A DNA stretch of 34,864 nt from an uncultured virus (IMG/VR IMGVR_UViG_2663763079_000004) (taxonomy: Duplodnaviria; Heunggongvirae; Uroviricota; Caudoviricetes). The stretch spans positions 62,001-96,864 of IMG/VR virus record IMGVR_UViG_2663763079_000004; one strand, written 5' to 3'. A model generated the notes under the pieces. The model saw only the letters and a program-made list of their open reading frames with translations, made no database searches and was not told the DNA's origin. The number at the start of each line of letters is the position of its first letter. The first letter of the stretch is position 1. Both the position numbers and the translations under genes were made by a program. Shown piece by piece: positions 11,605-15,385 of this stretch.

Positions 11605-11622
11605 GTGTATGGAGTGCTGAGC

Positions 11623-12453
11623 ATGAATATCGAATCAATTCCAAAATTCTTTGCCCCGAAAGGAATGCATATATCAGATAGCGGGAGAGCAACTGCCAGC
11701 GAACAACTCACCGTAACTGACGTTATGGCTGCGCTGGGGATGACGCAGGCCGAAGCGGGGATCGGATTATCCATGTTCCTGGGTAAGGCTGGCATCAGCG
11801 AGAATGACCGCATGGCCTCAATTCACTGGTTGGCCGAATATGCAAAGAAGAATGCTCCCCGCTCAGTCAGGAAAGCCGCCGGCAAGAAATATCCTCTTTG
11901 CATGCTGATCATCGCCAGGTTCGCATATCACGACTACGCCTCATCAGCTGCGGATACTACGGACTGTACGAAATGCGCAGGTAAGGGGTTCGTGAAGAAA
12001 GTTAAAATGGTCGAGAAAAGCCACTACACAATGAGATTACCGCAATGGGCAAAAGACCTCAGGCAGTCACCTTCTGATTTTGAGGTTAAGCGGCAGGTGC
12101 AGGATGTCGATCACGTGCTTTGTGTGAAATGCCATGGCACCGGGAAAATCAGTAAGCGCTGCCAGTGCAGCGGGACGGGGAAGACACTTGACCGCAAAGA
12201 ATCCGAACTTCAGGGAGTGCCTGTCTACAAGACATGTAAGCGTTGTGAAGGCCGCGGGTTTAGCAGGCCAAAATCCTCCAATGCATACCGCGGCATCCTT
12301 TCAGAGTTACCTGGCTTGCCGGAGCGTACCTGGCGTTATAGCTGGAAACCTTTTTATGAAAGCCTAGTGACCAAATGTTTTGTGGAGGAGAGTTTTACTG
12401 ATGCTCAACTCCGGAGAGTTACAAAAACGACTAATTTGATAAATTTCGCATGA
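11623..12453 (+). CDS. Q: Late antitermination protein Q (Zn-finger, phage 82-type)
   Basis: KFFAPKG, LTVTDVMAALG, several CxxCxGxG motifs; followed by promoter and terminator. Confidence 0.9.
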   Translation: MNIESIPKFFAPKGMHISDSGRATASEQLTVTDVMAALGMTQAEAGIGLSMFLGKAGISENDRMASIHWLAEYAKKNAPRSVRKAAGKKYPLCMLIIARFAYHDYASSAADTTDCTKCAGKGFVKKVKMVEKSHYTMRLPQWAKDLRQSPSDFEVKRQVQDVDHVLCVKCHGTGKISKRCQCSGTGKTLDRKESELQGVPVYKTCKRCEGRGFSRPKSSNAYRGILSELPGLPERTWRYSWKPFYESLVTKCFVEESFTDAQLRRVTKTTNLINFA

Positions 12454-12534: not shown

Positions 12535-12560
12535 AAACCCGCCTCCGAGCGGGTTTTTTT
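12535..12560 (+). terminator. tR' terminator
   Basis: AAACCCGC-CTCCGA-GCGGGTTT plus T-run. Confidence 0.85.
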
Positions 12561-12662
12561 ATGGCTGCGAATCACATTTCTCGCAGTGGCGGTAATTTGT
12601 CGCTTGCTGAATTATTCGACCAGAGTTATCTGTGTGTCACGCCAAATGAAAGGGTAAAAGAC

Positions 12663-12899
12663 ATGCTAAATCAGCAAGATATGACAGAAACAGCCAAAAC
12701 GGTTTTGAACGCCTTAAGCGACAAGCCTGCAACGGCTGGAGAGATTGCACAGTATACGCACCTGACGCGTGAACGTTGCCAGTTAATACTGACGCAGCTT
12801 GTGATGGCGGGGTTATATGATTACCAGTGCTCTTTCCGTTGTGGCGAGCGAACATATCGGTTGATCCCGGCCTATAACGTAGCGATGTGCAAGCGTTGA
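12663..12899 (+). CDS. Small wHTH protein (TrmB-like, common after Q); C-terminus apparently replaced
   Basis: MLNQQDMTETA..PATAGEIAQ.T.L.RERCQLILTQLVMAGL.DYQ recognised; the sequence departs from the recalled family ending after DYQ (~12827). Confidence 0.6.
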   Translation: MLNQQDMTETAKTVLNALSDKPATAGEIAQYTHLTRERCQLILTQLVMAGLYDYQCSFRCGERTYRLIPAYNVAMCKR

Positions 12900-13082
12900 T
12901 TGACGTTAAGCAGGAGATGGGCGCCAGCTACCCCAACCCAATCCCTTACCTAAGAACGCAACAGTATGAAAGTTGGCGGAAAACGCAACAGGCGGTTTCA
13001 GAAAAAGGGAAAAAGGCTTTAAACACGATTGAAACTGGTCATATAAAAAGCTCTAAAGGACGCCAAAACGAGATTTTGTATG

Positions 13083-13112
13083 TTGCAAAAACTGTGGATA
13101 AGTCACTATAGT
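13083..13112 (+). promoter_or_regulatory. Candidate sigma70 promoter with a perfect DnaA box in its spacer
   Basis: TTGCAA (13083-13088), 18 bp, TATAGT (13107-13112); TGTGGATAA (reverse complement of TTATCCACA) at 13093-13101. Confidence 0.6.
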
Positions 13113-13185
13113 TAGCACTAACAAAAAGTATCCTCTGAAAAAAGTGGGATACTCAAAATAAAATCTCAATTTTTTGATACCGGCT

Positions 13186-13233
13186 ACACAACATGTAGTG
13201 CCTGATGTGGGTAGGGCGCACTACATGTGGTGA
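13186..13233. promoter_or_regulatory. Tandem NrdR-box-like operators
   Basis: ACACAACATGTAGTGC (13186-13201) and GCACTACATGTGGTGA (13218-13233) match acaCwAtATaTwGtgt at 13/16 and 11/16; starts are 32 bp apart. Confidence 0.65.
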
Positions 13234-13248
13234 TTGGAGGGCTTTACA

Positions 13249-13443
13249 ATGACAGTCAACGAAATCTACGAAACATACGGGATAGAACCAGCGCATTATG
13301 ATGCAAATGAGTCTCACTTTGCTTTCACTAAACGCATCCTGGGCTCAAGTCAGGTAACAGTAGAGAATACTGGTGTTAGTTATTCTTCCAGTAGTACTAA
13401 TAAAGGCAATATAGATAATAATAACAGTCTTTATAGTTACTAA
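13249..13443 (+). CDS. Small hypothetical protein (64 aa), Ser/Asn-rich C-terminus
   Basis: ATG 13249 after GGAGG; stops 8 bp before the protease gene. Confidence 0.7.
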   Translation: MTVNEIYETYGIEPAHYDANESHFAFTKRILGSSQVTVENTGVSYSSSSTNKGNIDNNNSLYSY

Positions 13444-13451
13444 GGGAAACT

Positions 13452-14360
13452 ATGCCGAACTGGAATGAAGTTCTGAACGAGATGACCATTCTTGAGCAGA
13501 AGAGTAACCCGTTGGATACCGTCAGGAAGAAGTATATAAAGAGTCTTTCTGACTACACAGGTAGAAATGTCATTTGTTACTACTCAGGATGGCTTCAGAA
13601 GAACACATCCAGTATTGGTCATTTAGTTTCTATGACAGATGACGACAAAAACGGTTTTATGACAGCCATCAATGGTATGGATCCCCAAAAGGGATTAGAT
13701 ATCCTTATTCATACACCTGGTGGTGAGATTGCTGCTTTAGAGTCTCTTGGGCAATATCTAAGGGCAAAATTTGGCACAGACATTCGTGCATTTGTTCCTA
13801 TGATCGCTATGTCTGCTGGCACAATGTTGGCATGCTGTGCAAAAGAGATTGTGATGGGGAAGCAATCAAATATTGGGCCATTTGATCCTCAAATGGGGGG
13901 ACTACCTGCTCATGGTATCCTTGAAGAGGTTGAAAAGGCCAAGCAAGAAATGATGCAAGACCAAAGAACGATTCCATTTTGGTCTTTCAATCTTCAGAAA
14001 CTGCATCCAACCTTCATCGGTGAGTGCGAAAAGGCCATCAAATGGGCAAGTGAAATTGTTTCTGAATGGTTAATTTCCGGGATGTTCAATGGCGAAGCTG
14101 ATGCTAGGAATAAAGCAGCGTCAATTTGTGGTCGACTAAATGATCATTCGACAACATATGCCCACGCTAGGCACATTCATATGGATAAGGCCCGCGAGAT
14201 AGGGTTAAAAATCGTCTCCTTAGAGGATGATCAAGAGCTTCAAGATCTAGTGCTTACTATTCATCATAGTTATATGCATACCTTTGGGAGCAGCACTGCG
14301 GTTAAAATTATTGAAAACCATAATGGGTCGACAATGATTTGGCATGCGGGAAACCAGTAG
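13452..14360 (+). CDS. SDH-family Clp-fold (ClpP/S49-like) serine protease
   Basis: LDILIHTPGG, AMSAGTMLA (Ser), SNIGPFDPQ (Asp), HARHI (His), A.EIGLKI; no signal peptide; AT-rich. Confidence 0.88.
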   Translation: MPNWNEVLNEMTILEQKSNPLDTVRKKYIKSLSDYTGRNVICYYSGWLQKNTSSIGHLVSMTDDDKNGFMTAINGMDPQKGLDILIHTPGGEIAALESLGQYLRAKFGTDIRAFVPMIAMSAGTMLACCAKEIVMGKQSNIGPFDPQMGGLPAHGILEEVEKAKQEMMQDQRTIPFWSFNLQKLHPTFIGECEKAIKWASEIVSEWLISGMFNGEADARNKAASICGRLNDHSTTYAHARHIHMDKAREIGLKIVSLEDDQELQDLVLTIHHSYMHTFGSSTAVKIIENHNGSTMIWHAGNQ

Positions 14361-14384
14361 CACAAATTCCACCCAACAGTTCTT

Positions 14385-14410
14385 AAAAGGCTACCACTGG
14401 TAGCCTTTTT
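14385..14410 (+). terminator. Terminator of the protease operon
   Basis: AAAAGGCTACC-ACT-GGTAGCCTTTTT. Confidence 0.85.
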
Positions 14411-14440
14411 CATTTCTGCACCTGTGCCGGTGCATATCAT

Positions 14441-14539
14441 CCTCAGAGCCTTAACAGGGGTGAGCCACAGAATGGTCGCGTGACTACTCTGAGGGCGATC
14501 ACCTCTGGGCACTGGCTCACCCCTGTAAAGGAAAGTCAC
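14441..14539 (+). promoter_or_regulatory. Structured 5' leader RNA overlapping the RBS of the next gene
   Basis: Perfect 14-bp stem 14454-14467/14513-14526, inner stem 14473-14479/14495-14501, apical loop complementary to both flanks. Confidence 0.7.
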
Positions 14540-15385
14540 ATGAAAAAAGTCACCATGGCCGCCATCGCGGTCGCTTCGCTGTGCCTGAGTAACGCCGCTT
14601 CGGCTACTGAGGTTGTTATCACGACTGGCCAGCAGGGACTGACCTACAACTCGGTGTACGGCGTGAACCTTGCCAGCGCACTGAATGAGTATGGTTACAG
14701 TTCGACGGTCATCCCCAGCAAAGGCTCACTCGACAATCTCGACAAGGTGGCCAGCGGCGCCGCTCAGATCGGTTTCACTCAGGCCGATGCTTTCCAGTTC
14801 TGGCGCGGCCGGCACAGTAACGAAGCACAGAAGGTAGACATCATTGGTGAGCTGGCCGATGAATGCGTTTTTGTGGCGGTGAAGAAGGGCGGCAAGATCA
14901 GCGATGAAGGGGATTTAAAGACGGGTGTGATAATCGCAGTCGGTGAGCCAACCAGCGGATCGTATGCATCCTGGCAATATCTTCAGGGGCTGGAAAAAGA
15001 CTACGCCAAAGTCGAGACCTATGCCAAAGGCGGTGTGCGCTCTCTGGCGAAAGTCACCACTGGCGAGTATGACGCCTTCCTCTGGGTATCAGCGCCGGAC
15101 CGGTCGAATAAGTTTCTGGAGGCGGTTAATCAGGAAGGCAGCGGCCTGACAATGATCGACATGAACGGCTGGCATGTAGACGATAAGTTGCCTAACGGGA
15201 AGCCGGTGTATGAGCTGAAAAAAGCGGTGACCGAATCCGGCTGGCTGAGTGACTCGAAGGTGAAGGTTCCTTGCACTAAGACGCTGGTGGTAGCAAATAC
15301 CGATGCTGGTGATGACATGCTGGAAACGGCCTCGACTGTCCTGCTGAAAAACCTGAGCCGGGTGCTCGGTACCAACGGTAAATAA
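14540..15385 (+). CDS. TAXI-family (TRAP-type) periplasmic solute-binding-like protein
   Basis: Signal peptide MKKVTMAAIAVASLCLSNAASA; ITTG..G.TY, S.GSLDNL..V.SG.AQIGFTQAD, AVG.P.SGS, G.YDAF motifs. Confidence 0.8.
   Translation: MKKVTMAAIAVASLCLSNAASATEVVITTGQQGLTYNSVYGVNLASALNEYGYSSTVIPSKGSLDNLDKVASGAAQIGFTQADAFQFWRGRHSNEAQKVDIIGELADECVFVAVKKGGKISDEGDLKTGVIIAVGEPTSGSYASWQYLQGLEKDYAKVETYAKGGVRSLAKVTTGEYDAFLWVSAPDRSNKFLEAVNQEGSGLTMIDMNGWHVDDKLPNGKPVYELKKAVTESGWLSDSKVKVPCTKTLVVANTDAGDDMLETASTVLLKNLSRVLGTNGK

Follow-up and report, generated by a model that had tools for sequence, protein, structure and literature searches.

What kind of RNA lies ahead of the TAXI-family solute-binding protein gene of an uncultured caudoviricete phage (IMG/VR record IMGVR_UViG_2663763079_000004), where a long hairpin overlaps the ribosome binding site? 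The locus was analysed within a stretch of 34,864 nucleotides (nt), positions 62,001 to 96,864 of that record (the window, to whose numbering coordinates refer unless another locus is named). The element is probably a cis-acting, conserved 5' leader RNA of approximately 125 nt, here termed the "phage terB/tciA leader", tciA being a TerB-family gene. It comprises a hairpin (P0), a second hairpin (P1/P2) and at least two long-range pairings (PK1 and PK3), and has both a closed fold and a competing open fold.

All the pairings listed in a first-pass annotation of this DNA were present when read directly from the sequence. P1 pairs ACAGGGGTGAGCCA (14454-14467) with TGGCTCACCCCTGT (14513-14526) over 14 bp without mismatch and, beyond a single A/A mismatch (14453/14527), is extended by CCTT (14449-14452) pairing with AAGG (14528-14531). 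As that annotation had proposed, this extension buries the Shine-Dalgarno sequence (AAGGA, 14528-14532, 7 nt ahead of the ATG at 14540) in the predicted fold. The inner stem joins TGGTCGC (14473-14479) to GCGATCA (14495-14501) with a single G.U pair and presents a loop complementary to both flanks, 14487-14494 matching CCTCAGAG at 14441-14448 (PK1) and the 5' half of the loop, 14480-14485, matching AGTCAC at 14534-14539 (PK2). Two features were additional to the annotation's list, namely P0, whose stem of 5-6 bp spans 14418-14433, and PK3, formed between the P0 loop and the 3' side of the internal loop that separates P2 from P1 (GUGCC, 14424-14428, with GGCAC, 14508-14512, in the window). The nested part of the structure had a folding energy of -51 kcal/mol (z = -3.49), and none of 200 dinucleotide shuffles folded as well. 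The RNA is that of the plus strand, since many of its G.U pairs would be C/A mismatches on the opposite strand. The strongest argument against a chance origin is that the architecture recurs across copies with compensatory base changes.

Pairs were counted mainly in 80 distinct lambdoid copies, and a wider alignment was made of 29 representatives chosen from 86 distinct copies, six jumbo phages included; a cell denotes one base pair in one aligned copy. Among the 80 copies 90.9% of cells paired, compared with 38-45% when partners were slid, and both-side changes were observed in 14 pairs, a number reached by none of 500 shuffles. The topmost P1 pair varied (AU in 43 copies, UA in 26) and five of the 13 P2 pairs showed compensatory changes. 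PK1 was paired in 99.8% of cells with three of its eight pairs compensatory, the terminal pair being broken in one copy (L009). In P0, counted in the 29 representatives, 99.3% of cells paired and four of five pairs were compensatory. The same representatives gave PK1 pair types of AU17/GC6/UA5/GU1 at one position and CG22/UA7 at another, and PK1 occurred in four sequence versions, CCACAGAG/CUCUGUGG, CCUCAGAG/CUCUGAGG, CCAUGGAG/CUCCAUGG and CCGUAGAG/CUCUACGG, together with G.U intermediates.

At least five contiguous Watson-Crick pairs of PK3 could be formed in 75 of the 80 distinct copies, with versions that differed by type: CGCUC/GAGCG, CGCCC/GGGCG, GUGCC/GGCAC in the window and GGCUC/GAGCC in phage Asesino. 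One PK3 column pair was CG in 46 copies, UA in 33 and other in one, and two of five pairs were compensatory in the 29 representatives. The PK3 register of the window type is offset by one from that of the other types, so that its rows are scored as unpaired by the tool. Exceptions were phage Evi, L240 and L258. In the Evi copy (L005 2504-2652) PK3 is broken because the P0 loop is of JLK type and the internal loop of TciA type, and 11 consecutive G stand in place of the GGGG of the P1 5' strand; the copy is a recombinant or else reflects a homopolymer error in assembly. At the level of aligned sequences, compensatory changes support P0, P1/P2, PK1 and PK3.

The claim of a double pseudoknot stood in part. 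Covariation of both loop-flank pairings, assessed by pair counting, was found for PK1 but not for PK2, the pairing of the loop with the 3' flank. The loop GUGAC and the pre-AUG GUCAC were invariant in all 80 lambdoid copies; PK2 showed no compensatory change, with four of its six pairs invariant and the sixth, outer pair broken in 15 copies. Both motifs were missing from the six jumbo-phage homologues, whose spacer ahead of the AUG is variable and rich in A/U. PK2 is an unproven pairing, perhaps one added in the lambdoid subfamily alone.

When the mixed alignment was folded with RNAalifold, P0 and a hairpin that competes with P1/P2 were returned, whilst P1/P2 itself was not. The competing hairpin recruits the P1 5' strand, the end of the PK1 strand and the P2 3' strand, and therefore excludes P1, P2 and PK1; it is predicted to leave 14519-14542, with the Shine-Dalgarno sequence and the AUG, single-stranded. 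It was possible in all types, 96.2% of cells pairing in the 80 copies compared with 28-55% with slid partners. Constrained folding gave -59.2 kcal/mol for the closed and -48.4 kcal/mol for the open fold in the window, -53.5 and -51.9 kcal/mol in L024, and -46.7 and -39.6 kcal/mol in phage Caitlin; in L159 (Escherichia coli type) and L166 the nested minimum was already the open fold. The P1 of the window is perfect, so that its closed fold is favoured much more than in relatives. The models contain two mutually exclusive folds, as in a riboswitch expression platform, the open one based on conserved complementarity. A conserved, nearly isoenergetic hairpin that frees the Shine-Dalgarno sequence points to a two-state translational switch, and on these folding models such a switch is plausible. 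The conformational translational switch proposed in the first-pass annotation thus holds as a plausible reading, whilst the triggers it named (a ligand, a small RNA, RNase III or Q) were not supported.

In such a switch the closed fold (P0, P1/P2, PK1 and PK3) would be the OFF state, with the ribosome site of the first gene shut, and the competing hairpin the ON state, in which the same strands pair in a different register and the Shine-Dalgarno sequence and AUG are free. PK1, the strand of which runs directly into the anti-Shine-Dalgarno CCUU, would be restricted to the OFF fold, whereas PK3 would be compatible with the open fold without clash. By geometric reasoning, PK3 would make the internal loop a three-way junction from which P2 could fold back along P1 and place the apical loop next to the P1 base; there, a second junction covering the ribosome site would be closed by PK1 (and in lambdoid copies by PK2). 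The long-range pairings would tip a nearly balanced RNA toward OFF, and an input acting on them, such as a ligand or ion, a protein, a small RNA, an RNase or temperature, would set translation of terB-tciB(-TAXI). We infer that the closed fold blocks translation in vivo and that the RNA switches between the two folds.

Several observations weigh against this interpretation. Shuffled columns formed the competing hairpin in 95.6% of cells, compared with the observed 96.2%, and both sides changed in only one of its pairs. The hairpin represents conserved complementarity and not covariation, since shuffled columns pair nearly equally well, and the G-rich and pyrimidine-rich strands concerned pair promiscuously. 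Opening energies do not discriminate, being 12.6 kcal/mol in the nested model for the leaderless tciA of phage P1 and 7.0-11.5 kcal/mol for leader copies. The P1 core and CCUU/AAGG are invariant, and because the search patterns partly required the P1 core this is uninformative either way. Independent lineages are few, approximately five lambdoid and two jumbo types, hence compensatory events are few. The joint formation of P1/P2, PK1 and PK3 in three dimensions is geometric reasoning rather than a computed result. Finally, the RNA-library data are assembled contigs of related strains, incapable of showing transcript ends, and a raw-read run gave no aligned reads; the end of one contig at 14442, a base into the PK1 5' strand, cannot be taken for an RNA 5' end and may be an assembly or graph break at diverging prophage copies or at a repeat boundary.

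A true riboswitch would be a special case of the two-state reading, in which the pseudoknotted OFF fold is an aptamer and a small molecule or ion tied to terB-tciB-TAXI closes the ribosome site; we regard this as a tentative possibility. It would account for a multi-helix fold with covarying long-range pairings, for the nearly isoenergetic competing fold, for the contiguity of the anti-Shine-Dalgarno and PK1 strands and for the constant linkage to a single gene module in phages of unrelated types, and an apparent aptamer-like fold, structured, conserved and backed by covariation in P0, P2, PK1 and PK3, is consistent with it. Nearly all conserved nucleotides are, however, explained by pairing, with few invariant positions left unpaired for a pocket as judged by eye, no ligand can be named, and the leader was not found at eight of eight other terB contexts. 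A new class of triple-pseudoknot aptamer that senses a metabolite or ion and gates terB-tciB-TAXI translation would be a somewhat speculative assignment. It is unlikely that the element is instead static. In that case it would damp translation to a fixed degree, insulate folding, or serve to stabilise or process the mRNA (as a substrate of RNase III or RNase E, for instance), either where a read-through late transcript begins or just behind a tRNA. Its regular position just behind a terminator (93 of 106 contexts) or a tRNA, the near-continuous duplex of RNase III size, the variable A/U-rich single-stranded linker after P0 and the contig end at 14442 could all be read in this way, but a damper or stabiliser needs neither covarying long-range pairings nor a conserved competing hairpin, and the contig end may be the assembly break considered above.

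Quite unlikely, in our view, is a role as an operator, in which the fold would be opened or locked in trans by a small RNA or by an RNA-binding protein of phage or host. The invariance of the loop GUGAC and the pre-AUG GUCAC, with adjacent linkers variable, would suit a binding site, and prophage small RNAs are encoded nearby: STnc100 lies just 3' of terB-DUF3927, and Pas small RNA genes are reported in the same regions in the main text of a preprint (bioRxiv 10.64898/2026.05.13.724894). Against this, no complementary partner was found elsewhere in the window, where a search with the P1 strand and the loop gave 8 matches (shuffle mean 2.8, maximum 8) and 3 matches (shuffle mean 0.49, maximum 3), the best with 2-3 mismatches and near the shuffle range. 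The TAXI-type leader has no terB downstream and yet preserves its structure by compensatory changes, which makes autoregulation by TerB unlikely. Highly improbable is a self-cleaving ribozyme or other catalytic RNA trimming the late transcript just 5' of PK1, for which the nested multi-pseudoknot topology, loosely reminiscent of hepatitis delta virus (HDV)-like ribozymes, and the contig end at 14442 might be cited; no Rfam ribozyme family matched, the order of helices is unlike that of HDV-like, twister and pistol folds, the sequence at the putative site differs between types and contig ends are not RNA ends. A kink-turn in the internal loop and mappings onto HDV-like or twister folds were likewise rejected by inspection. 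That the hairpin arose by chance, terminates transcription, or acts at the DNA level as a repeat or a binding site for protein is scarcely credible. P1 is indeed a strong GC-rich inverted repeat, but no U-tract follows it, the next bases being GUAAAGGAAAGUCACAUG, the terminator scan gave no site at 14449-14531, no shuffle folded as well, G.U pairs are tolerated on the plus strand only and compensatory changes occur in four helices. The leader was accordingly rejected as an intrinsic terminator or attenuator.

The leader represents a new RNA family working on a known principle. The Rfam search that the annotation had suggested was run, and no characterised family matched: with Rfam 15 at the gathering score there were no matches in the window and nothing on the leader in L162, L159, L001 and L002, and when E was relaxed to 10 or 1 all that appeared were chance matches below threshold, for example to mir-587 on the minus strand (17.9 bits). 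No description of the leader was found in a full-text literature search on prophage TciA/TerB and lambdoid late-leader RNA topics. The main text of the preprint mentioned above places PasA and PasC small RNA genes within 10 kb of TerB genes and does not describe the leader (bioRxiv 10.64898/2026.05.13.724894).

Among known systems, the pseudoknotted translational riboswitches SAM-II, preQ1-II, ZTP and guanidine-III resemble the leader in sequestering the Shine-Dalgarno sequence through long-range pairings and in having a competing open fold. The leader, in contrast, lacks an Rfam match, is larger (P0, P1, P2 and two or three long-range pairings) and is confined to phages and prophages. In the rpsO (S15) and phage T4 gene 32 leaders a pseudoknot at or over the initiation region also controls ribosome access, but these bind their own gene product, whereas here terB and TAXI are swappable and the fold is kept by compensatory changes. 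The repZ/repA leaders of IncI-alpha/IncB plasmids likewise pair a distant hairpin loop beside the ribosome site of a structurally closed gene. Their pseudoknot, however, activates, requires translation of a leader peptide and is blocked by an antisense RNA, whereas the present leader has no conserved open reading frame (ORF) and no antisense partner was found in the window. With the lambda cIII and N leaders and the T7 early mRNAs it shares alternative folds or long duplexes whose opening or cleavage (by RNase III) sets translation; there is no sequence relation, and those phage leaders are not known to have covarying long-range loop pairings.

As the annotation had suggested, comparable leaders stand ahead of different cargo in this lambdoid slot, with terB/tciA occupying the position in hundreds of prophages. 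A blastn search detected the leader at 73-79% identity in 17 phage records, ending at the ATG of tciA between Q and the lysis genes. At least 234 copies, 80 of them distinct, were collected by pattern scanning, twice in viral contigs and once in species genomes, and from the phage and E. coli loci; in the species-genome contig scan with a strict pattern, 6 of 40 loci were true copies. Judged by the first six residues of the downstream product, 220 of the 234 matches listed precede a TciA-like gene, 8 a TAXI gene and 1 a small ORF with a signal peptide (L078), and 5 are unclear; of 19 loci obtained by scanning for non-ATGT starts, 7 had TAXI and 12 TciA genes. The L078 ORF (245-820, minus strand) has a signal-peptide-like start, MKKRFLSAVTVAVLL..., overlaps the holin gene and is a third cargo, neither terB nor TAXI. 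The JLK type was present in 783 of 5426 complete E. coli genomes at 2059 places (median 3 per genome), where Q, tR', tRNA genes and another terminator precede it, and the LMessi type in 13 of the 5426. Across 106 distinct upstream contexts, 93 had a hairpin with a T-run ending 5-25 nt before P0.

A diverged copy was found in Erwinia and Salmonella jumbo phages (Caitlin, Asesino, pSal-SNUABM-04, pEa_SNUABM_10 and others; covariance model E-values 7.6e-11 to 2.5e-9), directly 3' of a tRNA-Cys gene and before terB-DUF3927, and in the Caitlin record, read that far, a TAXI gene follows terB-DUF3927. Because of this gene order and because the TAXI protein of the window is 65-74% identical to the jumbo-phage TAXI proteins, terB, tciB and TAXI are, on gene order and protein similarity, one phage module. 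The window type looks like this module with terB-tciB lost and the leader fused straight to TAXI. With the covariance model the leader was further detected in phage JLK-2012, where the TciA encoded after it is only 43% identical to that of L011. Since the leader precedes so diverged a TciA, as well as TAXI and the jumbo-phage operon, it appears to go with the module and not with one protein alone. In the loci compared, L078 apart, it precedes either the terB/tciA-tciB(-TAXI) module or TAXI alone. It was not found before the terB of P1, pJN2-26, SP-076, phiK7B1, AF, MS02, LIET2 and SP-058 (eight of eight tested), the leaderless terB phages being P1-like, Schitoviridae and Pseudomonas, Vibrio and Pantoea phages, nor before the TAXI genes of Wellington, FBKp24, phiEaH2 and KLEP7. 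Phage P1 (L158 560-738) encodes a tciA product that is 84% identical and has no leader, and its own Shine-Dalgarno region is predicted to be paired, with an opening energy of 12.6 kcal/mol. In E. coli prophages STnc100 (RF02076, 105-107 bits), an RNA distinct from the leader, lies directly 3' of terB-DUF3927 (L162 3760-3932; L159 3159-3331), so that the module is flanked by structured RNAs on both sides.

Two further sets of matches were noted. LC567818.1, LC567822.1 and nine other phage records match the leader over its first 54 nt only; these are PPompW-type prophages and Stx2a-converting phage records containing them, with the IS110-family element ISEc20 annotated under the match, which suggests that an insertion cuts the leader at one fixed point. 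In L121, a Kocuria sabuli scaffold of 700 bases, the leader and the start of tciA are identical to the common E. coli/Klebsiella type, and this copy is most likely contamination of an actinobacterial assembly.

The lambdoid slot behind Q, tR' and tRNA genes is where Shiga-toxin phages carry stx, and if the two-state reading is true an uncatalogued and structurally elaborate regulatory RNA occupies it. The leader is present in approximately one in seven complete E. coli genomes, mostly in prophages of enterohaemorrhagic and enteropathogenic type at about three copies each, and also in the Erwinia and Salmonella jumbo (giant lytic) phages. It would offer a handle on the phage terB/tciA-tciB-TAXI module, whatever opens the leader being the signal of the module, and it would suit structure work, being a natural two-state RNA of compact size whose three long-range pairings are testable.

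Table 1. Positions of the leader RNA elements, the alternative hairpin and neighbouring features in the window
Feature	Position	Strand	Remarks
P0 hairpin	stem 14418-14422/14429-14433, loop 14423-14428	+	independently predicted by RNAalifold
PK3 5' strand, GUGCC (P0 loop)	14424-14428	+	partner 14508-14512
PK1 5' strand, CCUCAGAG	14441-14448	+	partner 14487-14494; abuts anti-Shine-Dalgarno CCUU
P1 5' strand	14449-14467	+	includes anti-Shine-Dalgarno CCUU, 14449-14452
P2 5' strand	14468-14479	+	
Apical loop, 15 nt	14480-14494	+	GUGACU (PK2 5' strand, 14480-14485), A, CUCUGAGG (PK1 3' strand, 14487-14494)
P2 3' strand	14495-14507	+	alternative partner is P1 5' strand in competing hairpin
PK3 3' strand, GGCAC (internal loop)	14508-14512	+	partner P0 loop
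P1 3' strand	14513-14531	+	3' end is Shine-Dalgarno sequence
PK2 3' strand, AGUCAC	14534-14539	+	immediately 5' of start codon; candidate pairing, lambdoid subfamily only
Alternative (putative ON) hairpin	14446-14518	+	14446-14450/14514-14518 and 14455-14463/14499-14507; RNAalifold consensus, constrained folds
Q-type late antiterminator gene	11605-12453	+	Pfam PF03589, two stretches, E 4e-46; phrog_127
tR'-like intrinsic terminator	12535-12556	+	terminator scan; directly 3' of Q
ClpP-like SDH protease moron	13452-14360	+	PF01972, phrog_11747
Intrinsic terminator just 5' of leader	14385-14409	+	terminator scan; the protease moron's own
Phage TAXI-family solute-binding protein gene	14540-15385	+	281 aa, signal-peptide-like N-terminus; PF16868, phrog_6856

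Within the window the leader lies in a late region (Table 1) that runs from Q through tR', a phrog_331 gene, a 74-codon ORF and the protease moron to TAXI, which is followed by two holins and then the endolysin. The tR' region aligns at 72% with the promoter-terminator region of L011, in which a near-identical tR' runs straight into the leader; on this comparison 12557-14410 reads as an insertion between tR' and the leader. A promoter scan gave no sigma-70 promoter between 14410 and 14445, and the segment between P0 and PK1, which includes a variable A/U-rich single-stranded linker 3' of P0, varies among types and contains no conserved TAnnnT -10 element in the alignment examined by eye. The leader RNA is presumably made mainly by read-through of the upstream terminator. 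A leader peptide, ATG-GTC-GCG-TGA at 14472, was rejected as it is not conserved in other types by eye, and inspection of the alignments gave no conserved leader ORF. The put-type antiterminator RNA of HK022 consists of two hairpins just after the promoter and makes RNA polymerase terminator-resistant; the leader, by contrast, sits after terminators and abuts a start codon, a position that argues against the put type.

Contigs from RNA libraries of related strains covered the protease moron at word depths of 726 and 187, in keeping with a moron that lysogens express, and the leader weakly, at 16. Promoter-like sites lie 5' of the moron at 13083-13164. The Q protein of the window has 282 aa, two PF03589 stretches and a match to the DnaJ-type CXXCXGXG zinc finger, whereas leader-bearing relatives use other Q types, a 162-aa Q in JLK-2012 and a DUF1133 protein in O157:H7, indicating that the leader is not tied to one Q family.

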